From a virus (lineage: Duplodnaviria > Caudoviricetes), in IMG/VR virus record IMGVR_UViG_3300032307_000533, positions 1 to 55,953 of that record: a stretch of 55,953 nucleotides of DNA. One strand, 5' to 3'. Every line of letters starts with the position of its first letter. The first letter of the stretch is position 1. Below the pieces are notes generated by a model. The model did no database searches. It was not told the origin of the DNA and worked only from the letters and a program-made list of their open reading frames with translations. Positions 7,813-33,623 of the stretch are shown here, piece after piece. A program made the position numbers and the translations under genes.

Positions 7813-8196
7813 GGGGATGACTGGAATTGATTGATAGATACGTTCTTTAATTTGATGCATGCAGTGTTAGTATCGGAAACACTTTAATAACCTATACACA
7901 GTTTTAAATGGCGAAAGCTATATTGATGCTGACGGCAACATCGTGTTGGACGGTCAGTCTGTTGAGTTTGCAGATCTAGAATTGGCCTAAGCGAAAGCTT
8001 GGCTGACAACAGTCACCCAAAACTGCAAAACGATGTGTCGCTATCGTATAAGCGAGCAGAAGATTAGTTCTCAGTAAACCGAACTGCTAAAATAAGGGAA
8101 TTGTGAAGTTTGCCAGGTTAGAAAACTTGGATAAGCATGTGAACGAGGGTTAATTAATGACTAGACAAGACAGGGGTTCGAATCCCCTCATCTCCA
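7813..8196 (+). ncRNA. ssrA: tmRNA (transfer-messenger RNA)
   Basis: GGGGATG/CATCTCC acceptor with G3-U70; 3' GACAGGGGTTCGAATCCCCT T arm; GCATG...GCATGT helix 2; internal ORF 7910-7990 encoding GESYIDADGNIVLDGQSVEFADLELA*, followed by a hairpin. Confidence 0.92.
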
Positions 8197-8238
8197 CAAA
8201 TGGCGGTATCAAACGGTATCGCCTTAATTTTTTAGTCT

Positions 8239-8646
8239 ATGGTAAAAGGTGTAATTGCGGGTAATTTTGATGTAATCCATCCAGGGTATATTAAGATGTT
8301 TGAGGAGTGTAAAGGAAACTGTGACACTTTCATGGTTTTTCTACATGACGACCCTTCATTGGAACGTCCAGAGAAATTAAAACCAATATTATCGGTGGAA
8401 GATCGATATGGTATGTTGTCAGCTATACGCTACATCGATACTATTAAGGTGTATCGCACAGAAAGTGACCTACATGAGCTACTGGTTAACGAGAACCCAG
8501 ATGTGAGATTTTTGGGGGATGATTATAAAGATAAATCATTTACTGGCGATGATCTGGATATTCGAATACACTATTTAGATAGATCACATGGTTGGTCAAC
8601 AACAAAGTACAAGAAAATGATTAGTGAATCACTTAAAATTGATTAA
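8239..8646 (+). CDS. Cytidylyltransferase family (TagD/glycerol-3-phosphate cytidylyltransferase-like)
   Basis: AGNFDVIHPGY (HxGH variant), KPI...DR, LGDDY, RSHGWSTT. Confidence 0.85.
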   Translation: MVKGVIAGNFDVIHPGYIKMFEECKGNCDTFMVFLHDDPSLERPEKLKPILSVEDRYGMLSAIRYIDTIKVYRTESDLHELLVNENPDVRFLGDDYKDKSFTGDDLDIRIHYLDRSHGWSTTKYKKMISESLKID

Positions 8647-9110
8647 TGGAGCAGATGGAATTAATAACAACCTATATTTGTAAGAAGGGTGATATCGGTG
8701 TACACGACAATATGTTTGGTGGTACACTAGTGAGTTTAATTGATGATGCGTCAGCGGCATACGCGGCCCAGATTTGCGATACACCAATGGTTGTCACAAT
8801 TAAGATTGATGAATTGATCTTTAAGAAAGCTGTAAAGGTTAACGCACTACTCAAAATCTATGGAAAGGTTATTGAGTTTGGTAACACATCAGTATCTTTA
8901 TATATTGAGGTTAGAAAACATAATGTGCGTACAGGTGACCAAGAAATCGTTACCCATACCAACATTAAATTCGTTAGGATTGACGAGGATGGCACACCAA
9001 TACCAATTAGCCCACATGTTAAAGAGAGATATAAAGAGCGTCTAACTAAATATGGTAGAGGTCTTGTGTCGAAAAAAACAATTGAAAAAGATAAAGAAAA
9101 ACTTGCTTAA
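8646..9110 (+). CDS. Acyl-CoA thioesterase (hotdog fold, YciA-like)
   Basis: NMFGG.LVSLIDDA, VVT..ID...F, GNTS, FVRIDEDG.P. Confidence 0.88.
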   Translation: MEQMELITTYICKKGDIGVHDNMFGGTLVSLIDDASAAYAAQICDTPMVVTIKIDELIFKKAVKVNALLKIYGKVIEFGNTSVSLYIEVRKHNVRTGDQEIVTHTNIKFVRIDEDGTPIPISPHVKERYKERLTKYGRGLVSKKTIEKDKEKLA

Positions 9111-9144
9111 TTAAATTTTTTTGTCTATATTTATAATATAATAC

Positions 9145-9232
9145 GGAGAGTTGGCAGAGCGGTCGAATGCGGCAGTCTTGAAAACTGTTTTAGTGAAAGC
9201 TAACGGGGGTTCGAATCCCTCACTCTCCGCCA
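9145..9232 (+). tRNA. tRNA-Ser(TGA)
   Basis: GGAGAGT/ACTCTCC; GCAGT-CTTGAAA-ACTGT; long variable arm; G73 plus CCA. Confidence 0.96.
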
Positions 9233-9234
9233 CA

Positions 9235-9317
9235 TTATAACTAGGGTCGAGCCAGATTTTGCCACGGTTATAAAATAGGTGAGGAAGGATCAGAGCTGGC
9301 CGTGACTACTCTTCACC
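9235..9317 (+). ncRNA. Unidentified two-hairpin RNA with complementary loops
   Basis: TTATAACT/GGTTATAA and GGTGAGGA/TCTTCACC 8-bp stems; GCCAG(9251-55)/CTGGC(9296-9300) loop-loop complementarity; fills the spacer between two tRNAs. Confidence 0.45.
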
Positions 9318-9323
9318 GAATTT

Positions 9324-9397
9324 GGTCCTATAGCTCATTCGGTTAGAGCAACTGACTCATAATCAGTAGGTGCTTGGTTCGATCCCAAGTGGGACCA
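9324..9397 (+). tRNA. tRNA with CAT anticodon (elongator Met or lysidine-modified Ile2)
   Basis: GGTCCTA/TGGGACC; ACTGA-CTCATAA-TCAGT; CCA not encoded. Confidence 0.92.
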
Positions 9398-9401
9398 CAT
9401 C

Positions 9402-9490
9402 GGAAGGTTGGCAGAGAGGCCGAATGCGGCAGTTTGCTAAACTGTTGATCTCTGAAAAGGGATCCACTGGTTCGAATCCAGTACCTTCCA
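9402..9490 (+). tRNA. tRNA-Ser(GCT)
   Basis: GGAAGGT/ACCTTCC; GCAGT-TTGCTAA-ACTGT; long variable arm; A discriminator; CCA not encoded. Confidence 0.92.
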
Positions 9491-9493
9491 CAA

Positions 9494-9965
9494 AAGGGGT
9501 TCTTTGACATAATACATTAAAAAATTTTTAAACTATGGAAACAATTTATTTCAGTTTAGGAATTGTTACGGCTTTGGTTGCGGTTTTACTCGTGATTGGG
9601 GTTGTGATGGTTGCTAGATTAACGAAAAAACAGTCAAACCAAGAAGATACAATAACTCATATCGAAAGATATAACCAAGAAGGTAGAAATGACCTTGTAC
9701 GTGATTTGGACGATATTCGAAGAGAGATTCATAAACAATTTGATGAAGTACATCGAATGATAGCCCAATTAAACGATGAAATTAGACGTGAGCTAGAAAA
9801 TGTTGATAGAGAAGCGCATCGACATATTGATGAATTAAACAAATATGTTGATTCACGTTTCGACAAAACGTTGGACAATGTCAGTAAGTTAATTGCTGAC
9901 CACAATAAACAAAACGAGAAAAACGGTCTTTTAACGGACTAAAATAAAATAACAAAGAACCCCTT
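9494..9965. repeat. 13-bp perfect inverted repeat bracketing one gene
   Basis: AAGGGGTTCTTTG (9494-9506) and CAAAGAACCCCTT (9953-9965). Confidence 0.8.
9535..9942 (+). CDS. Membrane-anchored coiled-coil protein
   Basis: N-terminal TM helix followed by heptad-like helical repeats. Confidence 0.75.
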   Translation: METIYFSLGIVTALVAVLLVIGVVMVARLTKKQSNQEDTITHIERYNQEGRNDLVRDLDDIRREIHKQFDEVHRMIAQLNDEIRRELENVDREAHRHIDELNKYVDSRFDKTLDNVSKLIADHNKQNEKNGLLTD

Positions 9966-10002
9966 ATTTTTACTTTAATGTATTAATCAAACTATTTATA
10001 GT

Positions 10003-10332
10003 ATGAGTATGAACACAACACAGCGTAGGGTGCATATTGAACTTAATAGACAGTTCTTGAGTTGGTGCAGTAAAAATAACCTGTCCCTTAAGGAAAATGC
10101 TGAGGTATTTTTCGTTAACGAAAGATTATTGATGAAGCCCGAATACATCATAAATGATAAGATTTTTGTTGATATCTTAAAAACTGGTGAGTTTAAAGAA
10201 GAAAATTTAGAATTTTATCAGATCTTCGCGGAAAGTTTTGGTACGTTGATCTTAATCAGAGAAGAACATATTTGGTCATTGGATGATATAAGTAAACAAG
10301 ATCTTGAGGAAAGGTATAACTTTTCTTTTTAA
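10003..10332 (+). CDS. Hypothetical protein
   Basis: 109-aa ORF in a co-directional run. Confidence 0.65.
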   Translation: MSMNTTQRRVHIELNRQFLSWCSKNNLSLKENAEVFFVNERLLMKPEYIINDKIFVDILKTGEFKEENLEFYQIFAESFGTLILIREEHIWSLDDISKQDLEERYNFSF

Positions 10333-10338
10333 AACAAA

Positions 10339-10740
10339 ATGGGTCAAATATACGCCACCTTCATAAAGGTGGACGACAAAGTGATAAAATATTTGGGTAT
10401 ACAAAAGACTGAGCACGCAACAATGCTTATGAGTTTTTATAATTTACACATACTCATCGCCTTAACAAAAACACAAAACCATTTAATGTCTTCATTCGAT
10501 AACTCGTTTTTTAATGAGTTATCCCCGTTTAAAAACAAATTATCTTTTGTTTTCCAATACAATACTGAAGAACTCGCCCCTATCTATGTTTTATATAGCT
10601 GTGATAGTAACAAAACAGGTATCGCCACTAAGAAAAAGATAATGAAGTTATTTGCTGGGGCTGGTGTTAACATTAAAGAAGTTATTAAAAAAGGTAAAAA
10701 GGAAAAAGAAACCCCAACAAAATTTATTTTTGATTATTAA
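10339..10740 (+). CDS. Hypothetical protein
   Basis: 133-aa ORF with A-rich leader. Confidence 0.65.
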   Translation: MGQIYATFIKVDDKVIKYLGIQKTEHATMLMSFYNLHILIALTKTQNHLMSSFDNSFFNELSPFKNKLSFVFQYNTEELAPIYVLYSCDSNKTGIATKKKIMKLFAGAGVNIKEVIKKGKKEKETPTKFIFDY

Positions 10741-10767
10741 ATATTTTTTTATTATCTTTGTACCGCA

Positions 10768-11307: not shown

Positions 11308-11331
11308 AAATTAATTTATTACTTTTGTATT

Positions 11332-11736: not shown

Positions 11737-11775
11737 ATTATTTACTCTTTACAATATTTTGATATAATTATAGAT

Positions 11776-12087: not shown

Positions 12088-12093
12088 TAATTT

Positions 12094-12672
12094 ATGCGAT
12101 CAATAGGAAAACGATACGGCGGTAATAATGAATATAACGAGACAAATTCGAGAAATTTGGTCCTCAGTTCAAGTATTACCGATACAGCCGTTCGTGAGAT
12201 AATTGAATCGATATTAGATATTAACTCGGCTGATGATGAACTCTCGGCCGAGTTGACCGATTATAAAAGAGAACCAATTAAATTGGTTATTAACAGTTTT
12301 GGTGGCTCTGTATATGATGGATTCGCGTTAATCGCGGCGATCGAGCAATCTAAAACACCTATACATGGTTACGCCTATGGTTCAGCCATGTCAATGGCAT
12401 TCGCTATTTACATCTCAACACACGTTAGATTTGCACACAAGACAACGACATTTATGTATCATGAAATATCAGATTATTTCTATGATAACATAACTGGTGC
12501 CAAGCAAAACATTAAAGAGTGTGAGCGAATACAAAAAGTTTATGACAATTATGTGACATCCAGAACTTTGTTACCCACTGAAAAAATGAGGGTAATGAAA
12601 GATAAGAAAGAAGATTGGTATATCTCAGCACAAGAAGCCCTTAAATATAAGGTTATTCACAAAATACTTTAG
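12094..12672 (+). CDS. clpP: ClpP-family serine peptidase (copy 1)
   Basis: INSFGGSV, AMSMA (Ser), FMYHE (His), DWYISAQEALKYKVI. Confidence 0.85.
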   Translation: MRSIGKRYGGNNEYNETNSRNLVLSSSITDTAVREIIESILDINSADDELSAELTDYKREPIKLVINSFGGSVYDGFALIAAIEQSKTPIHGYAYGSAMSMAFAIYISTHVRFAHKTTTFMYHEISDYFYDNITGAKQNIKECERIQKVYDNYVTSRTLLPTEKMRVMKDKKEDWYISAQEALKYKVIHKIL

Positions 12673-13997
12673 CAATAAAAAATGTTATCCACTATACCGT
12701 TACCAGGGTCAACGGTGAACGAGAAGTTATTGTCCATTGAGTAATACCACATACCTGGCACCGCATTAAATGGAGTTGAGCCAGTTGAATCTTCGTATAA
12801 TTTATCACCCATACCTGTAAATGACTCAGCAAAGACACTTCCTCGTCTACCACCAGGGCCAATTTGACAAGCTTCATTAGGTTCAGCGAAAGGTCCAGTG
12901 ATTCCGTATTCGTTGTAAGTTACACCACCACCATATGTCGCATAACCACTCCAGTTACCAGCACCATCCCAATAAGCGTATGAGTTCTCAGCCGAAGTAC
13001 CGTACCAACCAGCTGGTGCGTAACTAGCGGCTCCAGTTTCCTCTACACCTAACGCTGACTCAGCCTCAGTACCACCAGGTGCCCAAAGAGGTGTTATAAA
13101 GAAGGTGGCTGGGGTACCAGGGTCGTAAGTGCACCAAACCTCAGTTTCAAAAACCGCGTTAGCTGGGAATGCAATACCTGGGTCAGAACCTTGATAATAT
13201 TTTACTGGACCAAGCCCAGTGCTATTAATTCTAATTCTTGGGTTATAACCTATTTGATCTAAACTACAAAACGTTGCGTGTCTCCACTCACTAGTTAATT
13301 TACTTGTAGCTGGTAACACATTTGGGTATGTCCCAGTATTATAAGGTGCTGCATCTAACAAATGATTAAACCCTAACCCACTACCGTTAGCTGCGATAGA
13401 ATAAAAACACCACGTACCAGTATAACCAGCTAATGTTAAAAAACCGTGGAAATGAAAGGTTTTATTGGTGTTACCAGCCAGTGTAAAGATACTCGGGTTA
13501 TGACCAGCAACTGTTGTTATATTCGCACCTAAATTACCTAAATACAAAGATGCGCTGGTGCTAAATGATGCCGATGGCGCGGTAAATGTTGTGCTTGAAG
13601 ATCCAGTACCAGTATATTGGTTACCATATTTTCTACCGAATGCGTCTATTGTAGTCACAAAGTAATCAACGTATGTCCAACTACTATTAGCGCTTTTTCT
13701 TTTACACCACGGACCACGAAAAACATTTAATGTATAATCATAGATTTGAAACGCCACATATGTATCATTTGTTGCGTTAGGGTTACCACCAACAAGTGGT
13801 TGGAAAACGGATAATATTCTTAATTTTGGTGGTCTATTAAGGCCTTTATAAAAGGTTGGCCCTGTGTATTCATAACCAACTGTGAAAGTTACGTTAGATT
13901 GTGTTGCACCGTACCTGTCACTAGCGGCGTATACAACTTTTGCTGTAAAACTACTTAAAGAGTTAATATTATTGATTTTTCTACCTAGATTTGCCAT
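12669..13997 (-). CDS. Putative virion structural/fibre protein
   Basis: 442 aa rich in G/T/S/Y/W; YAPAGWY and LYEDSTGSTPF..GMWYY modules; operon behind a TATTTATA motif. Confidence 0.55.
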   Translation of the reverse strand: MANLGRKINNINSLSSFTAKVVYAASDRYGATQSNVTFTVGYEYTGPTFYKGLNRPPKLRILSVFQPLVGGNPNATNDTYVAFQIYDYTLNVFRGPWCKRKSANSSWTYVDYFVTTIDAFGRKYGNQYTGTGSSSTTFTAPSASFSTSASLYLGNLGANITTVAGHNPSIFTLAGNTNKTFHFHGFLTLAGYTGTWCFYSIAANGSGLGFNHLLDAAPYNTGTYPNVLPATSKLTSEWRHATFCSLDQIGYNPRIRINSTGLGPVKYYQGSDPGIAFPANAVFETEVWCTYDPGTPATFFITPLWAPGGTEAESALGVEETGAASYAPAGWYGTSAENSYAYWDGAGNWSGYATYGGGVTYNEYGITGPFAEPNEACQIGPGGRRGSVFAESFTGMGDKLYEDSTGSTPFNAVPGMWYYSMDNNFSFTVDPGNGIVDNIFYC

Positions 13998-14011
13998 TAT
14001 TCATATATTTT

Positions 14012-14587: not shown

Positions 14588-14667
14588 TTTATTAACTTAT
14601 TTTACTATAAATACAATTAAAATGTAAAATATTTGGTGGTTAACAAAGTTTATATTATATTTGCAAC

Positions 14668-15389: not shown

Positions 15390-15435
15390 AGTAATTTCTT
15401 ATATTTAAGATAAATATATTAAACATTAGGAAAGA

Positions 15436-16305: not shown

Positions 16306-16349
16306 AAATTTTGTTTTTTTGAAAAATTAGTATTATATTTGTGGGAGAT

Positions 16350-22471: not shown

Positions 22472-22735
22472 ATGCCAGAATTTTACGTAGAAGACTTGGA
22501 CATTGACCCAAGTGAATTTGTCAGCGCATGCTCAAAAAGAGAGATTGGAGAATTAATCGATGCGTTAGCTGAAGATGGTTACATCGTCAACCCAATTAAC
22601 AGTGTCCCAGCAGAGGATAAAAATCTTTTAGATGAAGAACGGGATGAGGTTATGGGTAAATTAGCTGGTCGAGGTAGATTAAGATTAACAAACGAAGAAG
22701 AAGAAATTATTAGAAAGATAGCAAACAGGTTATGA
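22472..22735 (+). CDS. Hypothetical protein
   Basis: ATG 22472 downstream of a TATCTTTG promoter; ATGA-coupled to the ligase. Confidence 0.65.
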   Translation: MPEFYVEDLDIDPSEFVSACSKREIGELIDALAEDGYIVNPINSVPAEDKNLLDEERDEVMGKLAGRGRLRLTNEEEEIIRKIANRL

Positions 22736-23805
22736 ATTTAGAAACATTAAACAAGTATCACGAGGATGGGTTGTTGTACAAACAAACACACCCAACTCTT
22801 CCATTGACAATTTGGAACTACACCGAAAAAGTGCAGTACGAAATGTTATGGGATGAGATTACTATTGCATGTCGTGGACTTGTTACTGATGATTCTGGTA
22901 ACATTGTAGCTAGACCATTCCCTAAGTTCTTTAACTACGAAGAGGTTATTGATAAAGACGTTATTCCATGGGATAGTGAGTACATCCACGTACAAGAAAA
23001 AATGGATGGGTCTTTGGGTATCCTATTTCATTACGCTAGTGAGTGGCATTTGGCTACCAGAGGTTCGTTTACATCGGATCAAGCTGTAAAGGGTCTAGAG
23101 ATACTTAAATCAAAATACGATTTAAACAGATTTGTAAAAGAGGTTACTTACCTATGCGAAATCATATACCCTGAAAATAGGATCGTTGTTGATTATGGTG
23201 AGGATAAGATAACCTTTCTAGGTGCTAGTGTACCTGACATGGAATTTAACTGGGCCCCAGCTAAAGCGATATTCAAAACTTCTGGTATAAAAGAAGAGGA
23301 TGTTGTTTGGAGTTCTATGGATGTGTTATCTGAGGATGTTTTCAAAAGATATCAAAATCTTAACGAGCCAGATAAAGAGGGTTTTGTTATAAGGTTTTAC
23401 CCATCCAATTACCGTGTTAAAATTAAGTTTGAGGATTATGTTAGACTTCATAAGATAATGACAAACCTATCAACACGTAATGTTTGGGAGACGTTATCAA
23501 ATGGGGGTGACATAATGGAAACATTGGTTGATGTCCCAGATGAGTTTTATGATAAAATAAAGGGGTATGCCGAAGAATTGCAGAACCAATTTAGTACGCT
23601 TGAAAGAGAGTACAAGTGGATCTTTAAGATATTACATCGCTCATTGACTGAGGTATATAATGTACCACAAGAAAAACAACGAGCGGTATTCGCGCAGTAC
23701 GCTAAGAACTACAAACACCCAGCCATCTTGTTTAAGATGTTAGATGGTAACGATTACACGAAAATAATTTGGAGTTTAATTTACCCAGAATACAGAAAAT
23801 TATGA
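22732..23805 (+). CDS. T4 Rnl1-like RNA ligase
   Basis: IWNYT, CRGLV, ARPFPKFFN, EKMDGSLG (motif I), ATRGSF, CEII, EGFV, KIK. Confidence 0.9.
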   Translation: MNLETLNKYHEDGLLYKQTHPTLPLTIWNYTEKVQYEMLWDEITIACRGLVTDDSGNIVARPFPKFFNYEEVIDKDVIPWDSEYIHVQEKMDGSLGILFHYASEWHLATRGSFTSDQAVKGLEILKSKYDLNRFVKEVTYLCEIIYPENRIVVDYGEDKITFLGASVPDMEFNWAPAKAIFKTSGIKEEDVVWSSMDVLSEDVFKRYQNLNEPDKEGFVIRFYPSNYRVKIKFEDYVRLHKIMTNLSTRNVWETLSNGGDIMETLVDVPDEFYDKIKGYAEELQNQFSTLEREYKWIFKILHRSLTEVYNVPQEKQRAVFAQYAKNYKHPAILFKMLDGNDYTKIIWSLIYPEYRKL

Positions 23806-24053
23806 ACATGTTAGATTTAATTATTGAACAGAACCCAGAAGAGGAGTTCTTAAAAGCGGACGGATTAGATGGGGCTATCATTGGTTATGATGACCAAACT
23901 GGTAGACTCATTTATTCCATGAGCAAAGTTATTGGAATCCTCACAACGGAAGATGAGATGACTGAAGAAGATGCTCTAGAGCATTATTACTACAACATCC
24001 ATGGAAGTTACGTAGGAGAAAAAACACCGATTTGGTGTTATGATTATTTTTAG
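23802..24053 (+). CDS. Hypothetical phage protein
   Basis: ADGLDGAIIG...YNI.GSYVGEKTP; ATGA overlap. Confidence 0.7.
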   Translation: MNMLDLIIEQNPEEEFLKADGLDGAIIGYDDQTGRLIYSMSKVIGILTTEDEMTEEDALEHYYYNIHGSYVGEKTPIWCYDYF

Positions 24054-24066
24054 ATATATTTGCAAA

Positions 24067-24702
24067 ATGAAAATACAAGTAGGAAGAAACCAAAAGGTTT
24101 GGTTTACATCGGACACACACTATGCGCACACGAATATTTGTCGTGCCATATCAAACTGGCCCGATGAGGATAAGACGAGAGATTTTGAATCTTTGGATAA
24201 GATGAATGCTGCGATTGTTAATGCGATCAACAACAATGTTGGTCCAGATGATATCTTATTCCACTTGGGCGACTGGTCATTTGGTGGATTTGAGAAAATC
24301 GCTGAACTTCGTCACAGAATCATGTGTCAAAACATTCACTTGGTGCTTGGTAACCATGACCACCATATCGATCGAAATAAAGAGGGTATACAGGACTTAT
24401 TCGCTTCTGTGAGTAAATACCATTACCTTACACTTAAAGTCGATAAGGGTGGCTCCCATGACGTTCATAGAATGGTATTGTGCCATTTCCCTATTGCGTC
24501 TTGGCATGACCTTAACCAAGGTGTTATCCACTTGCACGGACACGTTCACTTGCCAGCGCATTTGAAATTCGGTCCAGGTAAGATGATGGACGTTGGAATG
24601 GATGGTTCAAACGGGATGGAACCATACGAATTAAAAGACATCCTAAAATTAATGGAAAAAAGAGAAAAAAGATCAATGATCGCATACGACCATCATGAGT
24701 AA
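24067..24702 (+). CDS. Calcineurin-like metallophosphoesterase
   Basis: FTSDTH, HLGD, LGNHD, LCHFP, HLHGHVH, DVGMD. Confidence 0.92.
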   Translation: MKIQVGRNQKVWFTSDTHYAHTNICRAISNWPDEDKTRDFESLDKMNAAIVNAINNNVGPDDILFHLGDWSFGGFEKIAELRHRIMCQNIHLVLGNHDHHIDRNKEGIQDLFASVSKYHYLTLKVDKGGSHDVHRMVLCHFPIASWHDLNQGVIHLHGHVHLPAHLKFGPGKMMDVGMDGSNGMEPYELKDILKLMEKREKRSMIAYDHHE

Positions 24703-25111
24703 AGAATTAATATTAGTAAGAGGAGTACCAGGATCTGGTAAGAGCACAACCGCAAAACTATTGGGAGCGGGTGGGGCTGGCTACGCACATTTTGAAGCCG
24801 ACATGTATTTCACGGAAGATGGGGTTTATAAATTCGACCCTACTAAAATAAGAGATGCGCATGCATGGTGCCAAAATAGTGTTGAGCAAGCAATGTTATT
24901 AAACCATACCACTGGACATAACAGTGTAATCATAGTATCAAACACATTCACACAGGAGTGGGAAATGGAACCGTACTATGCTTTAGCAAAACAATGGAAC
25001 TATAAAGTGTTCAGTATCATCGTTGAGAACAGACATGGTGGTTTGAACGAACACAACTGTCCAGAAGAAACAATACAGAAAATGAAGGATCGTTTTGAAA
25101 TTAAATTGTGA
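24695..25111 (+). CDS. P-loop kinase (polynucleotide kinase-like)
   Basis: RGVPGSGKST Walker A, EADMYF, VSNTF, H..PEETI.KM..RF. Confidence 0.85.
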   Translation: MSKELILVRGVPGSGKSTTAKLLGAGGAGYAHFEADMYFTEDGVYKFDPTKIRDAHAWCQNSVEQAMLLNHTTGHNSVIIVSNTFTQEWEMEPYYALAKQWNYKVFSIIVENRHGGLNEHNCPEETIQKMKDRFEIKL

Positions 25112-25410
25112 TGAAACAAGTTGTATACAATATAGGGTATAAAGGAACTGGTTCTGGTGTATTGACTGCGTTTCCGCAAATTTGGGATTGTGATTTTCCA
25201 ACATTTGCTAAGAAAATAAGACTGAAAAAAAATATCAAAGGACTATTTAACTGGGCAAAAGAAAATCATGTTGCACCTTCAACACTTGTATTGTATATTG
25301 TTATTTGGTATGATGATGTTTATTGGGAGTACACAATTAAGATGATTAACGTTAGAGAATATAGAAAACATTGGGAATTAATATATAAAAAAGAATGGAA
25401 AGAAAATTAG
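25108..25410 (+). CDS. Hypothetical protein
   Basis: 100-aa ORF overlapping both neighbours. Confidence 0.55.
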   Translation: MMKQVVYNIGYKGTGSGVLTAFPQIWDCDFPTFAKKIRLKKNIKGLFNWAKENHVAPSTLVLYIVIWYDDVYWEYTIKMINVREYRKHWELIYKKEWKEN

Positions 25411-26414
25411 CAAGCATACAAATAATAGCCGATATCAGACCTATTGAAGGTGCTGATGCTATTGAAGTTGCACGTATCAACAACTGGGATGTTGTTGTGG
25501 CAAAGAATGTTGGTCACAAGGTTGGTGACCATGTGGTTTACTGTGAGATCGACTCATTCCTACCTGTTAGAGAAGAGTTTGAGTTCTTGCGTAAGAGTTC
25601 GTTTAAAAGAATGGGTGACCAAGAAGGTTTCCGTCTTAAAACAATTAGACTTCGTGGACAAGTGTCACAAGGTTTGATCTTACCTATGAGTGTCTTTGGG
25701 GAGTTCAGTTGGACCGCGTATGAAGGTCTTGATGTTACCGAGAGATTGGGTGTCGTTAAATATGAACCACCTATCCCAGCTGAACTTGCTGGTAAGGTTC
25801 GCGGTAACTTCCCAGGTTTCTTGCGTAAGACAGATGAAGAACGTGTACAGAACTTAACCAAAGACTACACAAAATGGGTTGAGGAAGGTTTGGATTTCTA
25901 TGTGACTGAGAAACTTGACGGTAGCTCCGCAACATTCTATTTGAACGATGGTGTATTCGGTGTGTGTTCTAGAAACCTAGACCTTGAGGAAACTGAGGGT
26001 AACACTTTCTGGAAAGTGGCTCGTGAGTTAAAACTCGAAGAGAAGTTACGTGAGAATGGACAGAACTTGGCCATTCAAGGTGAGTTGATCGGAGAAGGTA
26101 TTCAGGGTAACCCATACAAGATTAAAGGTCACACCGTTAGATTCTTCAATGCGTTTGACATTGATTCTCAAACCTACTACGGCTTACCAATGTTCTTGGC
26201 TTTATTTGAACATCAGTTTAAATTGGAGATTGTTCCGATGTTAACTAACTTGACAATGAAGCTACCTCAAACAATCGATGAGTGCTTGGCGTTCGCTGAT
26301 GGTAAATCAGTTCTTAATAATGGGTTTGATCGAGAAGGTGTTGTGTTCAGAACCATGGATAGAACCGTAAGCTTCAAAGCCATATCAAATACGTTCTTAC
26401 TAAAAGAGAAATAA
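25395..26414 (+). CDS. RNA ligase, DRB0094 family
   Basis: RKLASIQ.I..I.PI.GAD.IE N-terminal OB module, RLRGQVSQGL, KTDEERVQN, TEKLDGSS, QGELIG.GIQGN, REGVV, SFKAIS. Confidence 0.92.
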   Translation: MERKLASIQIIADIRPIEGADAIEVARINNWDVVVAKNVGHKVGDHVVYCEIDSFLPVREEFEFLRKSSFKRMGDQEGFRLKTIRLRGQVSQGLILPMSVFGEFSWTAYEGLDVTERLGVVKYEPPIPAELAGKVRGNFPGFLRKTDEERVQNLTKDYTKWVEEGLDFYVTEKLDGSSATFYLNDGVFGVCSRNLDLEETEGNTFWKVARELKLEEKLRENGQNLAIQGELIGEGIQGNPYKIKGHTVRFFNAFDIDSQTYYGLPMFLALFEHQFKLEIVPMLTNLTMKLPQTIDECLAFADGKSVLNNGFDREGVVFRTMDRTVSFKAISNTFLLKEK

Positions 26415-26415
26415 T

Positions 26416-26607
26416 ATGTTCAACGGTCTCTATGATATGATGGATGGTGCAATGGCTGAAGCCCTTGGTGTTGATTTGGAAATTTATATTGACATTATCG
26501 ATAATAAGTGTACCTTTGAAGAAGCGGATTTTATAATCAGTGCTGTGTGGGGTGAAGATGAGTCCGAAATAGAAAAAGCGAAAGAAATTTTTAATAAATA
26601 CATATGA
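26416..26607 (+). CDS. Small acidic hypothetical protein
   Basis: 63-aa ORF, ATGA-coupled to the next gene. Confidence 0.6.
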   Translation: MFNGLYDMMDGAMAEALGVDLEIYIDIIDNKCTFEEADFIISAVWGEDESEIEKAKEIFNKYI

Positions 26608-27287
26608 TATACGTAAGCATTGACATAGAGACAACTGGTTTAGACAATGACAACAGTCAGGTTTTATCTATTGGGTTAGTTGTTGAAGACACTAATAACC
26701 TAAAACCGTTTGATGAGTTACCTAAACTTGAGGTTGCCATCATACGTGAAAGATTGGAAGGTGAGATCTTTGCTCTTAATATGAACAGAGAACTCATCTC
26801 CGATATTCTTAGTTATAAAATAGCTAAGACACCAGAGGCTAAAGCTGAGATCATGGAAAGAACTGGTCGTGAATATCTTTATGAGGAAGATGTCACCAAA
26901 CGAATCTTCCATTTCTTATATGATCATAAAGCTTTGGATGGTGGTCCCGACTTGTTTGAACCAAACAGGATGATTGAAGTTGTTAAGGGTAAAAGTTACC
27001 CAATGTTGACATCAAAGATGAAACCATATTATTTCAACGGTGCTGGTAAGAACTTTGCAAACTTTGATAACAAGTTCTTGGAGAGATTACCAAGATGGAA
27101 ACAAGTGTTGAAAGCTAGAGGTAGGACAATCGATCCGTCAATCTTATTTGTTGACTGGAAGAACGATGACGCCATCCCAGGGTTGTCGCTTTGCAAAGAG
27201 CGCGCGAAGATGGATCCACATGTCACACACAATGCCATTGATGATGCGATGGATATTGTTAAACTATTGAGAACACGATACGCATGA
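26604..27287 (+). CDS. DEDDh 3'-5' exonuclease (DnaQ/oligoribonuclease-like)
   Basis: IDIETTG, NFANFD, HNAIDDA. Confidence 0.85.
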   Translation: MIYVSIDIETTGLDNDNSQVLSIGLVVEDTNNLKPFDELPKLEVAIIRERLEGEIFALNMNRELISDILSYKIAKTPEAKAEIMERTGREYLYEEDVTKRIFHFLYDHKALDGGPDLFEPNRMIEVVKGKSYPMLTSKMKPYYFNGAGKNFANFDNKFLERLPRWKQVLKARGRTIDPSILFVDWKNDDAIPGLSLCKERAKMDPHVTHNAIDDAMDIVKLLRTRYA

Positions 27288-27919
27288 GAGTAATCTTTTT
27301 GGATATTGATGGGGTTATGAACTCCACTGTCTTTTATAAGCAAAGACATAAGAGACGTTGGAGAAAACCCATCACTTGGTGGTATGCGTTAAGGCGAATA
27401 GTCAGAAAGTTATTTGGTATTAAACCAAAGGGGGTTTCTTTAGCGGATTGGAAAACACCTGATTCACATTACACATTTGACTACCAATTCAAAAGATTAC
27501 AAGAAGAGACTTGTCCTCAGAAATGGAAATGGTTGTCTGAATGGTGTAATGAAACAGATACTAAAATTTGTATTTCATCAACATGGAAACATCACTTTGG
27601 GGTTAAAGGGTATGTCTCTACACCTGAAAAATGGGAAGATGCTTTAGTTAAACTTGGGTTTAAAGAAGGTACTTACGTTGGAATTACTGGAGACCGAAGA
27701 ACTTTAAGGGGTGACGAAATTAAAGATTGGTTAGAGAAACACCCTGAGGTTGAGGACTACGCAATATTAGATGATGATTCTGATATGTTGCCAGAACAAT
27801 TTATAAAGTTTCATCACACGGACGGTTGGTTTGGGTTAACACCAAATCACTTATATAGAATTAACAGACAATTTGAAAACAAAAGTAATTACGAAAGATT
27901 AACACAGACAATAAGATAA
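27284..27919 (+). CDS. HAD phosphatase of the RNA-repair (Swiss-Army-knife) type, copy 1
   Basis: FLDIDGV, ISSTWK, RGDEI..WL, YAILDDD, GLT. Confidence 0.85.
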   Translation: MRVIFLDIDGVMNSTVFYKQRHKRRWRKPITWWYALRRIVRKLFGIKPKGVSLADWKTPDSHYTFDYQFKRLQEETCPQKWKWLSEWCNETDTKICISSTWKHHFGVKGYVSTPEKWEDALVKLGFKEGTYVGITGDRRTLRGDEIKDWLEKHPEVEDYAILDDDSDMLPEQFIKFHHTDGWFGLTPNHLYRINRQFENKSNYERLTQTIR

Positions 27920-28491
27920 TGAAAGTTATATTTTTAGACCATGACGGAGTAATCTGTCTATCCTCAGAGTGGGGTAATCGTTTTAAGAAACAAGATAAAT
28001 GGGGTGGGCGTAAATTATCTATGACCACAAGACAAATGCCAGTTGAATATCGATTCGATAACTTCAATCAAAAGGCTGTTAAGGTCCTCAATGAGATCAT
28101 TGAGAAGACTGGCGCTGAAATCGTTACATCATCCGATTGGAAACGATGGGCAAACCTTGAAGAAATGGGTGAGTACTACGAGTCCAAAGGGATTATTAAA
28201 AAACCAATTGCATTGACCACTGATTTGGGTCAGTGCACCTGGTACAACGGTATGACATGGATCTGGTCACCACAATGGGACTTGGAGATGACCCGTGTTA
28301 TCGAAATTAAACAGTACCTACATGATCATCCTGAGATTACTCATTGGGTTGCTGTTGATGATTTGGACATGGGTAAGAACGGTGAATCTTGGAAAGACTG
28401 GGGGTTGGATAACTTCGTACTCACACCAAGTGGTAGCGAAGGCATCAAACAATCAGGTATCAAAGAAAAAATACTTAAATATCTGGAATAA
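27919..28491 (+). CDS. HAD phosphatase of the RNA-repair type, copy 2
   Basis: FLDHDGV, TSSDWK, R..EI..YL, WVAVDD. Confidence 0.85.
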   Translation: MKVIFLDHDGVICLSSEWGNRFKKQDKWGGRKLSMTTRQMPVEYRFDNFNQKAVKVLNEIIEKTGAEIVTSSDWKRWANLEEMGEYYESKGIIKKPIALTTDLGQCTWYNGMTWIWSPQWDLEMTRVIEIKQYLHDHPEITHWVAVDDLDMGKNGESWKDWGLDNFVLTPSGSEGIKQSGIKEKILKYLE

Positions 28492-28566
28492 ACTCATTTA
28501 GAATACTATTTATAATGTACGCATATTTTTGCATTACATAAACATCATAATAGCAACATATGGAAG

Positions 28567-28788
28567 ATGACGATAGTAGGAAAAGTGAAGAAGGAGACCT
28601 GGAAAAAAAGGGTTTCAACAACGTGTTTAATGTTAGCAATGTTTTTCAACCCATTTGGGTTCGATGCGTTGTTCAAAATGGTGATGGATTGGACAGGTTC
28701 CTACTGGATTACGGATGCAATTTTTTATGGTATTGCGGCGCTATTTCTTGGTTTATATTTCTTAGTCAATAAAAAATCCACTAATTAA
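28567..28788 (+). CDS. Small two-TM membrane protein
   Basis: LAMFFNPFGFD...FYGIAALFLGLYF; TATTTATA upstream at 28507. Confidence 0.65.
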   Translation: MTIVGKVKKETWKKRVSTTCLMLAMFFNPFGFDALFKMVMDWTGSYWITDAIFYGIAALFLGLYFLVNKKSTN

Positions 28789-28824
28789 TTTGTTTATTTA
28801 GAAAATAGTTATTACTTTTGTGTC

Positions 28825-29289
28825 ATGACACAGAAATATAATATCTATTTAGACGATGTCCGCACGCCAGTAGCTGATGAGTGGGTCGTTGTACGTAACT
28901 ACGATGAGTTCGTGGCAAAAATAACTGAGATCGGCTTGGGTAATATCGAGTATATTTCATTGGATCATGATTTGGGTGACACCGCGATGAAAGAGTATTT
29001 TGAAAATGTTTCACCAAATTACCAGTTGGATTATTCTAATATCCATGAAAAAACTGGTTTGGATTGTGCGAAATGGTTAATCAATCATTTTTATGATACC
29101 CACCCAGAATACTTAGAACAATCTAGAGGTGAGAAGAAACGCTCGCTTTATTTCCCTTTCCCACATGTTTATGTACATTCGGCTAACCCGATTGGCTCAG
29201 CTAACATAATGGGTTACGTCAATAATTTTTTAATGAATGAGGCACAGCCACAAGATTGTGTGCGCGTGCAAATTGAACACACTGTGTAA
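28825..29289 (+). CDS. Cyclic-phosphate-processing receiver-domain protein
   Basis: IYLDDVRTP, VRNYDEF, ISLDHDLG, TGLDCAKWL, VHSANPIG. Confidence 0.8.
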   Translation: MTQKYNIYLDDVRTPVADEWVVVRNYDEFVAKITEIGLGNIEYISLDHDLGDTAMKEYFENVSPNYQLDYSNIHEKTGLDCAKWLINHFYDTHPEYLEQSRGEKKRSLYFPFPHVYVHSANPIGSANIMGYVNNFLMNEAQPQDCVRVQIEHTV

Positions 29290-29852: not shown

Positions 29853-29863
29853 AAAATAAAGTT

Positions 29864-30184: not shown

Positions 30185-30220
30185 TTTGGCCACTAAATAA
30201 AAAGTATTTATCTTTACACC

Positions 30221-30706
30221 ATGAATATATTTTTACTAGATTACGATGTTAAAAAATGTGCGCAGGCGCACGTTGATAAACATGTTGTTAAGATGATACT
30301 TGAAACGGCGCAATTGTTATGTGGTGTTCATTGGGTAACAGATAGCCAGTCCACAGCACCTTACAAGTTATCACATAAGAACCATCCGTGTTCAATCTGG
30401 ACCCGTGAGTCTTTATCCAACTACTTGTATTTGTGCGAGTTAGGTCTTGAGTTGTGTTACGAATACACCTACCGATACGGTAAGAGACACAAGTCGCAAG
30501 ACGTAATCGAATGGTGTATTGTGAATAAACCAAACATTGTCGATAAAGGGTTCACTGAGCCAGCCAAAGCTATGCCAGATGAGTATAAAGTTGATGACGC
30601 TGTTGAGTCTTATAGAAACTATTATTCTGGTGCTAAATCTGGTTTCGCCACTTGGAAGGGTCGAGACGTACCTGAGTGGTATGAAAACCGATTTGAGTTA
30701 TGTTAA
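30221..30706 (+). CDS. Pyrimidine-dimer DNA glycosylase-related protein
   Basis: MNIF.LD...A..H.DKHVVKMILE.AQLL, HKNHPC..W, EYTYRYGKRH, AMPDEYK, SYRNYY. Confidence 0.7.
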   Translation: MNIFLLDYDVKKCAQAHVDKHVVKMILETAQLLCGVHWVTDSQSTAPYKLSHKNHPCSIWTRESLSNYLYLCELGLELCYEYTYRYGKRHKSQDVIEWCIVNKPNIVDKGFTEPAKAMPDEYKVDDAVESYRNYYSGAKSGFATWKGRDVPEWYENRFELC

Positions 30707-31206
30707 TTGAGGATAGATTAAAACACAAAATCCTAAGTCCCTCGGAAGTCATTAACTTTGTTACAGAACATAGGGCCCAGGGCGATAAGATAATATTCAC
30801 CAACGGGTGTTTTGACTTGGTTCATCTTGGTCACCTGGAGTACTTGCTAAAGGCGAAGGAACTTGGTGGTATCCTAATGGTGGGCGTCAACTCAGATCAA
30901 TCGGTTCGTACAATAAAAGGGGATAAAAGACCTATAATATCCGAAACCCAAAGGTATCATAATCTGGCGTGTTATTACTTTGTTGATGCGGTTGTACCGT
31001 TTGGTGATGAAACACCGATAAACTTAATAAAAATCATACAACCAGACTTTTTGGTTAAGGGTTCTGACTACAAACCAGAGGATATTGTTGGGTATGATAC
31101 AGTAAAAAGTTATGGTGGTGAGGTGGTGACGATATCAACTGGTTTATCACCAGATATCTATAGCACAACAAAAATAATCGAAAGGGTAATTTTATCAGAA
31201 AAATAA
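30700..31206 (+). CDS. HldE/RfaE domain II-like adenylyltransferase
   Basis: FTNGCFDLVHLGH, VGVNSD.SV..IKG..RPI, PDFLVKGSDY, STT.II. Confidence 0.9.
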   Translation: MLIEDRLKHKILSPSEVINFVTEHRAQGDKIIFTNGCFDLVHLGHLEYLLKAKELGGILMVGVNSDQSVRTIKGDKRPIISETQRYHNLACYYFVDAVVPFGDETPINLIKIIQPDFLVKGSDYKPEDIVGYDTVKSYGGEVVTISTGLSPDIYSTTKIIERVILSEK

Positions 31207-31228
31207 CTATTTATATTAAAACTATATC

Positions 31229-31915
31229 GTGAGTAATTTTAAATTAAAGAAATCAGAATTTATGGAATTAAACGTCAATAAAAAGGCTTTGAATGAGGCT
31301 GAAGAGAATGAGCTTACATCAACTATGCCAGAAGAGATAAAAGACGATGAAGAGACCAAAGAGGTTGAAACATCTGAAGAAGAAAAAGAAGAGAACACCG
31401 AAGAGAAAAAAGAGGAAGTAAACGAAGGTGGTCTATATAAATTAAGTCAAGAAACTATTAGCGAGTTGACTGATAGAATAAAAGATGAGTACACCGCTCA
31501 CTACTTCTATGTTAACGCGTCTAACTGGTGTAGAGACATGAACTATAAGAAGGCTACCGCTTTCTTTGAGGCTGAGGCCGTTACTGAACTAGAGCACGCT
31601 AAGGGTGTTCAGGATTACATGACTGATTTTAATATCATACCTGTAATGCCATCGACTGAAACGAAAAGAACTTTCACTAGTTTGCCACAGATCATCAGAG
31701 AGGCTTACAAGTTAGAGTTGGATTTAATGATGAAATACAACGAAACATCAAGTAAACTATTCGCGTCAGACTTAACAACTTTTGATTTCTTACAGACGTA
31801 TAGAGTAGGGCAAAAAGAATCTGTTGTTGAGTACAACGATTTGATTAACGCTTTGGATTTAGTTAACGAAAACGACAAATTCCAGGTACTTTATTTCGAA
31901 CAAACATACCTATAA
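31229..31915 (+). CDS. Ferritin with a ~65-aa acidic N-terminal extension
   Basis: RIKDEYTAHYFY, FF..EA..ELEHA, AYKLE, DLTTFDFLQ.Y...Q.E four-helix ferritin pattern. Confidence 0.85.
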   Translation: MSNFKLKKSEFMELNVNKKALNEAEENELTSTMPEEIKDDEETKEVETSEEEKEENTEEKKEEVNEGGLYKLSQETISELTDRIKDEYTAHYFYVNASNWCRDMNYKKATAFFEAEAVTELEHAKGVQDYMTDFNIIPVMPSTETKRTFTSLPQIIREAYKLELDLMMKYNETSSKLFASDLTTFDFLQTYRVGQKESVVEYNDLINALDLVNENDKFQVLYFEQTYL

Positions 31916-31939
31916 AATATTGCGTATCATCGATATTAT

Positions 31940-31967
31940 ACCCCGCCCTAAAAAAGCGGGGTTTTTT
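31940..31967 (+). terminator. Intrinsic terminator
   Basis: ACCCCGC-loop-GCGGGGT followed by TTTTT. Confidence 0.8.
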
Positions 31968-32004
31968 ATTTGGTTTTATTAATTCTTTTTTCTATTTTTG
32001 TTAC

Positions 32005-32484
32005 ATGAATCCATTTTTAGAAAGAAAGCATGAGTTAACCGAACTTCATCTTAAAAAAGATAGGATAGCTTCTGATATTAAAAAAATAAAGGAAGAGCTT
32101 GAAAGAAAGATTGAGGCGCTTACCGATGTTCATAAGAACATGTTACTGGATACGGAACTTAAGATAAAAGAGTTCCCTAGACTCTGCGACCATACGGATG
32201 AGAATGGTGATTTAGCTACAGGCAAAGAGCATAAGATAATAGTACCTAGTATAGTTGGTGATATAACTTTGGTTAAACAAATGTGTTCGCTATGTGGTGG
32301 AAAAGTTTCTGAAGAAAAAATTGAGATCAGGAAATCTAAAGAAGCTGAATCCGAATTTAAAACCTGGTATCAAATTGATGACGATGAAACTTTTGTTGAT
32401 ACAATGACATTCGACCAGAATTTTATGAGTAATTTTATGGGTTATGTATCAGGTAGTACCATCGATATAAATTACATATTATAA
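32005..32484 (+). CDS. Hypothetical protein (coiled coil plus possible Zn site)
   Basis: Heptads, then CDH...CSLC. Confidence 0.65.
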   Translation: MNPFLERKHELTELHLKKDRIASDIKKIKEELERKIEALTDVHKNMLLDTELKIKEFPRLCDHTDENGDLATGKEHKIIVPSIVGDITLVKQMCSLCGGKVSEEKIEIRKSKEAESEFKTWYQIDDDETFVDTMTFDQNFMSNFMGYVSGSTIDINYIL

Positions 32485-32505
32485 TGGACTCCTTAAATAA
32501 CAATA

Positions 32506-33051
32506 ATGAGTAATTTTTGGAAAGACGCATATAAAGATAGTTGGGAACAATCAGCCACCAAAGAGAACCTAATCAAAGGGATAATTGAATCTGAGACAGG
32601 TTTAAAAGTTGATATAGTGGGTCTTGGTGCGGGTACAACCGATTACATATCTGGTAGCGCCCAGGACAACAACCACGAGAAAGGTGACGCTGACTTGTAT
32701 ATCGAAAGCAAAGATATACATATCGAAGTTACTGGCCCTAATGTACCCATGATGATATTTGATGATCTATGGTTCAGACCAGACAAACTAAATAACACTT
32801 ACAAAAAAGTTGTTACTGGTAACGGTAAACTACATTTGATCGTACACGTACAGGATGATAAACAAAACGGTAGAAAAATCATTCGCGGCATCAACCTTAA
32901 CGAACAATTTTTTCTGGATGTTAAAGCAAACCCCTACCCAATTATCACACCTAAGATAAGGGGTAATGTTGAGAAATATGTTGAGATTGATCCAAAAGAT
33001 AAGCACATAATAAAACTTGACCAAATAATAGAGTTAATAAAATCAGTATAA
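32506..33051 (+). CDS. Hypothetical protein, possible PD-(D/E)xK-like nuclease fold
   Basis: E...GDADL....IHIEVTG spacing. Confidence 0.45.
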   Translation: MSNFWKDAYKDSWEQSATKENLIKGIIESETGLKVDIVGLGAGTTDYISGSAQDNNHEKGDADLYIESKDIHIEVTGPNVPMMIFDDLWFRPDKLNNTYKKVVTGNGKLHLIVHVQDDKQNGRKIIRGINLNEQFFLDVKANPYPIITPKIRGNVEKYVEIDPKDKHIIKLDQIIELIKSV

Positions 33052-33185
33052 TGAGTAAAACTTTTAAATATATTCTGGGTACCGTTTTCATAGTATTTGG
33101 TATGTGTGTGGGTGCAAGTAAATTGGCCAACGTGGTTGGTATAATTTTAATAATTTTGATACTAAACCATGCGAGGAAATCGTAA
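33051..33185 (+). CDS. Small membrane protein (44 aa)
   Basis: TAATG-coupled; two short hydrophobic stretches. Confidence 0.45.
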   Translation: MSKTFKYILGTVFIVFGMCVGASKLANVVGIILIILILNHARKS

Positions 33186-33203
33186 GGTTTAAAACTTAAA
33201 GAT

Positions 33204-33623
33204 ATGATAAATAAAAAAGTTAGATTCGAATATGAGTTTTTACGTACAGAAGTGGCTGGTATTCAATTACTTGGTTCTGAGGTTAAGGCTATAAAAGATA
33301 ATAAGATTTCCATGGGTGAATCTTATTGCGTGTTCCATAACGGTGAGCTGTATGTTAAGAACATAAACATAAGTGGTAATGGTACCGCCTATTCACATGA
33401 ACCAACAAGAGATCGTAAACTTCTTTTGAGAAAAAGCGAGTTATTAAAACTACAAAAGGACTTGGTTAAGGGTTTAGCGATAGTACCTTACAAGTTGTTT
33501 AAGAACGAGCGGGGTAATTATAAATTGGAAATAGTTCTGGGCCGTGGTAAAAAATTACATGATAAGAGAAACGCGATTAAAGAACGTGATATTAGTAGGG
33601 AAACCAACAAAACACTTGCTTAA
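33204..33623 (+). CDS. smpB: SsrA-binding protein SmpB
   Basis: NKK.RFEYE, AGI.L.GSEVKAIK, HEPTRDRKLLL, IVP.KL, GRGKKLHDKR..IKERD C-terminal tail. Confidence 0.96.
   Translation: MINKKVRFEYEFLRTEVAGIQLLGSEVKAIKDNKISMGESYCVFHNGELYVKNINISGNGTAYSHEPTRDRKLLLRKSELLKLQKDLVKGLAIVPYKLFKNERGNYKLEIVLGRGKKLHDKRNAIKERDISRETNKTLA

Follow-up and report, generated by a model that had tools for sequence, protein, structure and literature searches.

The stretch of DNA studied here (the window) is a complete, linear IMG/VR virus record of 55,953 nucleotides (IMGVR_UViG_3300032307_000533; Duplodnaviria, Caudoviricetes). Its CheckV completeness is 16, so the genome would be about 350 kb long and the window about 16% of it. 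We found in the window a gene for transfer-messenger RNA (tmRNA, ssrA) and, 25 kb away, a gene for SmpB, its protein partner in trans-translation. The initial annotation, made from the sequence alone, had proposed an intact tmRNA at 7813-8196 and a complete SmpB with its DKR tail at 33204-33623, and hence both halves of trans-translation on a phage-like genome. The features at the centre of this proposal are listed below.

7813-8196, + strand: one-piece tmRNA (ssrA), identified by Rfam score, acceptor stem and covariation
7910-7990, + strand: tag reading frame, with the resume codon GGC at 7910, 26 codons (GESYIDADGNIVLDGQSVEFADLELA) and a TAA stop at 7988-7990
33204-33623, + strand: smpB, 139 amino acids, complete core and C-terminal tail, identified with Pfam and NCBIfam

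The claim of an intact tmRNA is borne out by Rfam, whose model RF00023 matches 7813-8199 (+) over its full length (1-374) with 65.9 bits, above the gathering score of 47. The acceptor stem (GGGGAUG/CAUCUCC) is paired at seven of seven positions and has a G3-U70 pair and discriminator A, and the T arm is GGGGUUCGAAUCCCC. The 3' end reads CUCCA followed by CAA; thus, CCA is not encoded and must be added after transcription. This does not exclude the RNA from the tmRNA family, as all five Bacteroidota tmRNAs examined likewise lack an encoded CCA. With default settings, ARAGORN reports six tRNAs and no tmRNA in the window, and the -l and -ps options return no tmRNA either. The gene is found only with lowered thresholds, at -ps80 on the window (among eight candidates) and at -ps85 on the excised stretch, where it is placed at 7812-8197 with the tag GESYIDADGNIVLDGQSVEFADLELA. 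Confirmation by ARAGORN, which the initial annotation had suggested, was thus obtained at -ps80 and -ps85 and not at default settings. At -ps90, the sole candidate (9283-9491) was rejected as false; it lies over tRNAs.

We then compared the tmRNA with those of related phages. A set of 24 phage tmRNAs was collected (the window, L010-L013 and L178-L196), of which ARAGORN with default settings detects three (two of the 18 distinct sequences), as against all five Bacteroidota tmRNAs, one of these wrongly tagged. Because of this low yield, the phage surveys that are based on ARAGORN (PMC7162821, PMC9004378) probably undercount tmRNAs. The acceptor stem is paired at all seven positions in 17 of the 18 distinct phage sequences; the G1-C, G2-C and G3-U pairs and discriminator A never change, and at positions 4-7 the changes are compensatory. 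The one sequence that deviates, G034, is a match below the threshold whose ends are uncertain. An RNAalifold analysis of 16 phage tmRNAs recovered the acceptor stem, a long-range GCAUGC/GCAUGU helix, the stem of the first pseudoknot (PK1) and the T arm, with compensatory changes in 13 of 22 pairs.

The tag peptides were read in every phage tmRNA as the GGN frame behind TAAAY, the tag starts given by ARAGORN at low thresholds being implausible in several relatives. The window tag has 26 residues, a net charge of -7 and the C-terminus LELA. Three tag families can be distinguished, and G005 has a further tag of 14 residues (ANSTSYNTSYALAA, net charge 0); the frame that begins with GGN is open throughout the families.

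Family A (window, G001, G002): 26 residues, ending LELA or LELV, net charge -6 to -7
Family B (G003, the G008 group, G040, G021): 25 residues, ending AVAA or AIAA, net charge -2 to 0
Family C (13 records): 20-22 residues, ending VVVA, VNVA, VAVA, EVVA or KVAA, net charge -1 to +1

Tag length is constant inside each of the four groups compared (26, 25 and 21-22 residues in the three families), and most changes in the tags are synonymous. The ratio of non-synonymous to synonymous change (pN/pS) is below 1 in all 22 informative pairs out of 25 (0.00-0.81), and the window tag frame is conserved in G001 and G002 with a pN/pS of 0.14-0.41.

The protein half is equally clear. The open reading frame (ORF) at 33204-33623 matches Pfam PF01668 with 141.3 bits (profile positions 4-141 of 143) and has the tail GKKLHDKRNAIKERDISRETNKTLA, in which GKK-x-H-DKR is intact and DKR is followed by 17 more residues. 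Since it also passes two NCBIfam equivalog cut-offs (TIGR00086, 145.7 against 119.1; NF003843, 141 against 130), the earlier claim of a complete SmpB with a DKR tail holds. Nine residues (G115, K116, K117, D120, K121, R122, I125, K126 and R128) are invariant in 15 aligned sequences. The protein matches 15 distinct solved SmpB chains, the best being 7ljp_A with 116 bits. The best match in GenBank is a 735-kb uncultured phage (LR756501, 50.7% identity), and the Lak phages have 41-42% identity to the window SmpB.

We then investigated whether RNA and protein occur together. The SmpB relatives were the best 80 of 417 viral stretches; 44 records of at least 35 kb were searched with RF00023, and 33 shorter records and three repeats of G001-G003 were left out. 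A tmRNA above the cut-off is found in 15 of the 44 records, and four more have a full-length match below it (45.6, 45.6, 38 and 33.5 bits). Together with five earlier relatives (four with a tmRNA) and the window itself, there are 50 SmpB-bearing viral records, 20 with a tmRNA above the cut-off and 24 with a full-length match. Eight of these records are at least 89% complete (G003, G007, G009, G010, G021, G027, G033 and G049): all eight contain a full-length match, six of them above the cut-off, although G007, G008, G009 and G010 share the same tmRNA sequence and are not independent. The survey of ssrA and smpB proposed in the initial annotation thus came out in favour of co-occurrence, and both halves, intact in the window, are conserved together across relatives. 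According to the coordinates, the distance between ssrA and smpB is under 1.6 kb in 10 of the 24 records, each with a family C tag, and 21-77 kb in the window's lineage and in family B.

For the cellular side, a scan that started from a single pattern gave 597 confirmed SmpB stretches, of which we used the best 80. Among these, the nearest to the window SmpB are proteins of Bacteroidota (Cytophagales, Cyclobacteriaceae, Spirosoma, Dyadobacter, Flavobacteriales), with 50-54% identity. A quick maximum-likelihood tree was made from 164 rows, 84 viral and 80 cellular, both sets being picked by similarity to the window SmpB and thus favouring this clade. In this tree, 81 of the 84 viral rows form one group with an SH-aLRT of 100, the exceptions being L007, L008 and L009, three rows on long branches. 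When the tree is rooted on an actinobacterial row, 37 of the 38 rows in the sister group are Bacteroidota, with a weak joining branch (64). The tag families require two changes on the SmpB tree, the minimum for three states, while 1000 shuffles required 8.9 on average and never fewer than five. The tags appear to be under purifying selection and to co-diverge with SmpB. This pattern shows joint inheritance of RNA and protein with the phage lineage; molecular co-adaptation is not thereby proven. The host of the phage group is most likely a member of the Bacteroidota.

Five Bacteroidota tmRNAs, taken from genomes with the closest SmpBs, score 114-151 bits and have a GGC resume codon. Their tags are 9-10 residues long and include GENNYALAA, GEYNYAMAA and GNDYNYALAA; the Dyadobacter tag, which ARAGORN mis-tagged, was read by eye. 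The phage pair resembles these systems in its GGC resume codon, the G-E/G-N start of the tag, the absence of an encoded CCA, the one-piece RNA and an SmpB that is 50-54% identical. On the other hand, the host tags end in YALAA or YAMAA, whereas the window tag, with its 26 residues, net charge of -7 and LELA ending, is two to three times longer. Judging from these comparisons, the phage tmRNA is apparently Bacteroidota-like in design, with a longer tag and, in the window's family, a lost AA ending.

The viral identity of the window rests on the relatives of its SmpB-bearing contig. A Pfam scan covered 58 of the 98 listed ORFs of the window, and neither virion genes nor an integrase were found among these 58. 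The content is that of an accessory region: six tRNAs, an RNA-repair island, enzymes for nucleotides, NAD and sugars, a histidine kinase with a response regulator, a ferritin-like protein and a tyrosinase. In IMG/VR, the contigs with SmpB relatives are 93-430 kb long, and four SmpB-bearing relatives have direct terminal repeats. Terminase_6N is found in four of the five relatives tested, including G002, which is collinear with the window; Terminase_6C (PF17289) gave no match in the five. The G001 and G002 tmRNAs are almost identical to that of the window, and in G001 the order of tmRNA, a ClpP-like gene (about 4 kb on) and smpB (about 21 kb on), as calculated from coordinates, is that of the window. 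The description of the sequence as a phage-like genome is thus supported by the virus record and by relatives with Terminase_6N and direct terminal repeats.

Several other genes of the window were noted. Directly 3' of smpB lies a DUF2452 protein gene (33667-34071; no NCBIfam match), which is followed by a 402-residue thymidylate synthase (34145-35353), where Pfam aligns residues 9-315 to profile positions 1-234 and insertions are therefore suggested. At 39012-40327, a gene for a histidine-kinase-like ATPase (295 amino acids) has the gene for a response-regulator receiver protein (143 amino acids) right after it. The region 45306-48413 has NAD-salvage-like genes, namely a weak PRPP-synthetase-like ORF and an ORF of the NAPRTase family (533 amino acids), and a tyrosinase/polyphenol-oxidase-like protein of 477 amino acids is encoded at 51755-53188 (PF00264, 107 bits). 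Two ORFs are cytidylyltransferase-like (8239-8646 and 30700-31206), the latter scoring 177.2 bits against rfaE domain II (cut-off 181.5). The ORF at 459-1424 as listed overlaps tRNA-Gly and tRNA-Thr (558-713), and the true start of this aminotransferase-like gene must be farther downstream. Neither Pfam nor PHROGs matched the ORFs at 5025-7532 (835 amino acids), 19374-22370 (998 amino acids) and 12669-13997 (- strand, 442 amino acids), and NCBIfam had no match for the first two; PHROGs gave no match for eight large or neighbouring ORFs of the window. In the Atlas, the 835-residue protein, encoded just 5' of the tmRNA unit, is similar only to hypothetical clusters confined to viruses (TM 0.63-0.69, feature score 0.84); we take this as a lead and nothing further.

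We then investigated the surroundings of the two genes. The tmRNA gene follows a tRNA-Leu gene, and the following signals flank this unit and smpB.

7561-7588, + strand: terminator-like hairpin (12-pair stem, then a T run) that closes the upstream 835-residue gene, at the start of the tRNA-Leu/tmRNA unit
7675-7682, + strand: TACTTTTG, a TAnnTTTG match 35 nucleotides 5' of tRNA-Leu; a possible but weak Bacteroidota-type -7 box
7717-7803, + strand: tRNA-Leu(UAA), CCA encoded, 9 nucleotides 5' of the tmRNA
8202-8223, + strand: terminator-like hairpin immediately 3' of the tmRNA (9-pair stem, then TTAATTTTTT)
33151-33158, + strand: TAATTTTG, a TAnnTTTG match 46 nucleotides 5' of the smpB start and preceded by a terminator-like hairpin (33126-33140)

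TAnnTTTG, which we take to be the Bacteroidota-type -7 promoter box, is mildly enriched in the window, with 93 occurrences against 74.5 +/- 8.6 expected, and 93 was reached in three of 100 shuffles. A sigma-70 promoter scan did no better than on shuffled sequence.

The stretch 7000-9600 is present in 14 DNA runs, mostly labelled as freshwater or lake and one of them perhaps the sample of origin, and six metatranscriptome runs share 0.11-0.14 of it (the habitat labels of runs with small shares were not used as evidence). The tmRNA body (7821-8161) occurs with 0-1 mismatches in contigs from four RNA-library runs of three studies.

Run X19: contigs cover 7821-8147
Run X16: contigs cover 7844-8148
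Run X20: contigs cover 7821-8060 and 8062-8161
Run X15: contigs cover 7950-8115

Variant contigs of X15 differ from the window in the tag region and look like G001-type relatives. The RNA contigs begin at 7821 (with the adapter directly before it in X15 and X19) and end at 8147-8161, which may be an effect of assembly or reverse transcription. In the four runs, contigs give almost no cover of the flanks 7000-7700 and 8218-8826; as these are contigs only, this proves nothing, and for the same reason we did not count a discrete stable RNA with defined ends among the results. What is observed is the presence of the tmRNA body in RNA libraries, in which DNA can also occur.

The initial annotation had added a CCA-type enzyme and an RNA-repair island to the picture.

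41515-42258, + strand: short tRNA nucleotidyltransferase of 247 amino acids, limited to head and neck; a candidate enzyme for CCA addition or repair
22732-29289, + strand: RNA-repair island, identified by domain matches

The first of these has the PolyA_pol head domain (PF01743, 61.7 bits) and matches phrog_24229 (tRNA nucleotidyltransferase) with 199.6 bits. It stays under every CCA-enzyme equivalog cut-off (best NF009814, 101.3 against 290; these profiles are roughly 400 amino acids long), and the next ORF (42255-42659) has no NCBIfam match. The nucleotidyltransferase head is thus real, and a full-length class II CCA equivalog with body and tail domains is not what this ORF encodes. Short homologues of the 247-residue protein exist in all five relatives. 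In the window, encoded CCA is lacking in tRNA-Met, tRNA-Ser(GCU) and the tmRNA and present in the other four tRNAs. The argument that a CCA-less tmRNA calls for a phage enzyme is undercut by the Bacteroidota tmRNAs: all five lack an encoded CCA as well, and such hosts must therefore already add it.

Alanine charging of tmRNA requires alanyl-tRNA synthetase (AlaRS). No AlaRS (PF01411) was found in the five relatives, four of them at least 99% complete; charging therefore depends on the host, and the word "autonomous", which had been applied to the rescue circuit, has to be given up. The RNA-repair island itself is confirmed by the domain matches at 22732-29289. It encodes an Rnl1-type ligase, a metallophosphoesterase, an AAA_33 P-loop kinase and an Rnl2-like ligase with a PHA02142 OB domain, as well as an Rv2179c-like 3'-5' exoribonuclease, two HAD_SAK_2 proteins and a cREC_REC domain protein. 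A link of the tmRNA-SmpB pair to host RNase toxins, also part of the initial annotation, is something that we can only infer.

Two ClpP-family peptidases had likewise been assigned to the circuit.

12094-12672, + strand: divergent ClpP-fold serine peptidase, Ser/His/Asp kept (PF00574, 72.3 bits)
48415-48981, + strand: second divergent ClpP-fold serine peptidase, Ser/His/Asp kept (PF00574, 105 bits)

The Ser, His and Asp of both ORFs align with residues of 6hwm_A that, going by the ClpP motifs, presumably form its triad. Against the ClpP equivalog TIGR00493 (cut-off 308.6), they score only 47.1 and 77.5 bits, respectively, and the best NCBIfam fit of the first is a ClpP-related head-maturation protease (63.7 bits, cut-off 120). 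We regard the two as ClpP-fold peptidases that are not established as ClpP. No unfoldase was found among the 58 scanned ORFs of the window, which is about 16% of the genome. The ClpP fold and the triad thus stand, while a role as tag protease does not follow from scores so far under the ClpP cut-off and a window with no unfoldase among the ORFs scanned.

The relatives have more to offer. G001 and G002 each have a 263-bit ClpP match about 25 kb 5' of the tmRNA, a position that, by arithmetic, would fall outside the window. A ClpP match of 172-194 bits is found in all eight further relatives, and a Clp-type AAA_2 unfoldase (ORFs of 683-702 amino acids) in five of the eight. The unfoldase gene lies 3-7 kb from the tmRNA in G027, G033 and G049 (tag family C; ORFs of 683-686 amino acids), and in G049 it is also near smpB (loci L181, L192, L194 and L213). 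AAA_2 is absent from G001 and G002 (incomplete), G003 (99% complete), and G008 and G040 (incomplete). At the level of the clade, ClpP and unfoldase genes favour the earlier reading more than the window alone does.

Taken together, these results make it probable that the window carries a working, phage-encoded trans-translation pair that is vertically inherited in a large group of huge phages most likely infecting Bacteroidota. In this scheme, tRNA-Leu and tmRNA would be transcribed as a short unit between the two terminator-like hairpins, and the tmRNA would be trimmed and receive its CCA from a host enzyme or from the short phage nucleotidyltransferase. The host AlaRS could then charge the tmRNA with alanine via the observed G3-U70 pair. 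The phage SmpB would be expected, from what is known of its family, to bind the tmRNA, and the complex would enter ribosomes stalled on broken or stop-less mRNA. Translation would resume at GGC and add alanine and the 26-residue acidic tag ending in LELA, whose frame and selection are seen in the sequences. The phage would probably gain extra rescue capacity in a long infection with mRNA cleavage, and through the tag it may decide what happens to truncated products, which would most likely be degraded by Clp-type machinery.

Several points weigh against this reading. The window tmRNA, at 65.9 bits, lies far under the five Bacteroidota tmRNAs, has several non-standard pairs in the pseudoknot region of the Rfam alignment and is rejected by ARAGORN at default settings. 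The pairs behind the pN/pS values are few and short and share ancestry, so they are not independent. In 26 of the 50 SmpB-bearing records there is no full-length tmRNA, although all of these are at most 64% complete and speak neither for nor against linkage. The RNA-library evidence consists of assembled contigs, from which neither abundance nor strand nor termini can be read and which contain neither half of the tRNA-like domain. The tags of the window's family end in ELA or ELV and not in the ALAA or AMAA of the five Bacteroidota tags; thus, degradation by ClpXP is not assured. An AAA_2 unfoldase is also absent from G003 (99%), the nearest of the complete relatives. That the tmRNA is charged, bound by SmpB and used for tagging, and what becomes of the tagged proteins, are steps that we infer.

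The first alternative concerns the fate of the tagged proteins. The pair might rescue ribosomes, while the long tag has evolved away from the host degron, such that host ClpXP ignores tagged proteins and these are handled by phage Clp or stay stable. We regard such a rerouting by a private tag as possible but doubtful. It would agree with the length of the phage tags in the three families (20-26 residues against 9-10 in the five Bacteroidota tmRNAs) and with their endings, LELA/LELV in family A and VVVA, VNVA, VAVA or EVVA in family C instead of ALAA/AMAA. The purifying selection on the tags and their co-divergence with SmpB also fit, as do the ClpP genes in eight of eight and unfoldase genes in five of eight further relatives, the latter only 3-7 kb from the tmRNA in three genomes. 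However, family B still has a host-like AVAA or AIAA ending, and the C-terminus is non-polar in all tags, so that host proteases may still read it. Moreover, no unfoldase was found among the scanned ORFs of the window, in G001 and G002 or in the complete G003, and the ClpP-like genes of the window are far under the ClpP cut-offs.

Two further explanations question the tagging or the genes themselves. The phage RNA and protein could act as a decoy that does no tagging, titrating host SmpB or tmRNA, or occupying stalled ribosomes, so that the quality control of the host, or a defence that monitors it, is shut down or blinded. As a precedent, the text of PMC4131195 describes mycobacteriophage DS6A, which has little beyond the tRNA-like domain, and a similar molecule that strongly inhibits tmRNA, perhaps by titrating SmpB. 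The window RNA is of full length, with an open tag frame of conserved length and residues, its SmpB keeps the whole tail, and selection on the peptide is unexpected for a pure decoy; we consider this explanation very unlikely. It is even harder to believe that the genes are not those of a phage, as they would be if host DNA had been mis-assembled, if a prophage edge had been included or if the tmRNA were the relic of an attachment site. GenBank does hold small temperate phages (of Staphylococcus, Listeria and Acinetobacter), several of them with smpB at the end of the record, which is likely host flank. In the window, on the contrary, the two genes lie 25 kb apart inside a contig that also has tRNAs and genes for phage-family proteins, the 58 scanned ORFs include no integrase, and tmRNA, ClpP-like gene and smpB keep their order in G001. 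The viral SmpBs are grouped apart from the 80 closest cellular ones, and the tmRNA is complete and not a mere 3' fragment.

Some of this has precedents. According to Al-Shayeb et al. 2020 (PMC7162821), tmRNAs (called with ARAGORN), SmpB and other genes of translation are found in huge phages. The likeness to the present case lies in a tmRNA and an SmpB in the genome of a huge phage; one sentence in the main text of that paper mentions the pair, and what is added here is its co-inheritance across the clade, the long tags specific to each lineage, an origin from Bacteroidota and the RNA-library contigs. tmRNAs are also described in mycobacteriophages of the Bxz1 group and in Bacillus phage G (Hudson et al. 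2014, PMC4131195), the tag of the latter being AKLNITNNELQVA (PMC12484599), and in marine Melnitz-like phages and myophages, where 402 of 18,146 phage genomes were positive by ARAGORN (PMC9004378). These phages resemble the window in having a phage-borne ssrA with its own tag. In the passages concerned, the RNA alone is described, and the word SmpB does not occur in PMC12484599, whereas the phage of the window also encodes the protein partner. In the literature, supplements aside, we came across neither a functional study of a tmRNA-SmpB pair from a phage nor an account of these tag families. As tmRNA and SmpB in huge phages are already published, the pair in the window is a further case.

To our knowledge, trans-translation is regarded as a universal housekeeping system of bacteria. 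The best reading of the sequences is that the window encodes a putatively functional, vertically inherited and host-dependent rescue pair that stems from Bacteroidota and has a long tag specific to its lineage. A more speculative idea, which we put forward as a long shot, is that the huge phages of Bacteroidota run a tagging system of their own, in which long tags of three families (20-26 residues) have diverged in step with the phage SmpB and drifted from the host degron. If so, tagged proteins would be sorted by phage-encoded Clp machinery or shielded from that of the host, and the virus would control a channel for quality control and amino-acid recycling separate from that of the cell. The phage set offers natural variants of tmRNA, SmpB and tag with which the factors that govern the fate of tagged proteins can be tested. 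A virus that has kept both RNA and protein over long evolution while its tag was rewritten points to ribosome rescue as a limiting factor for large phages.

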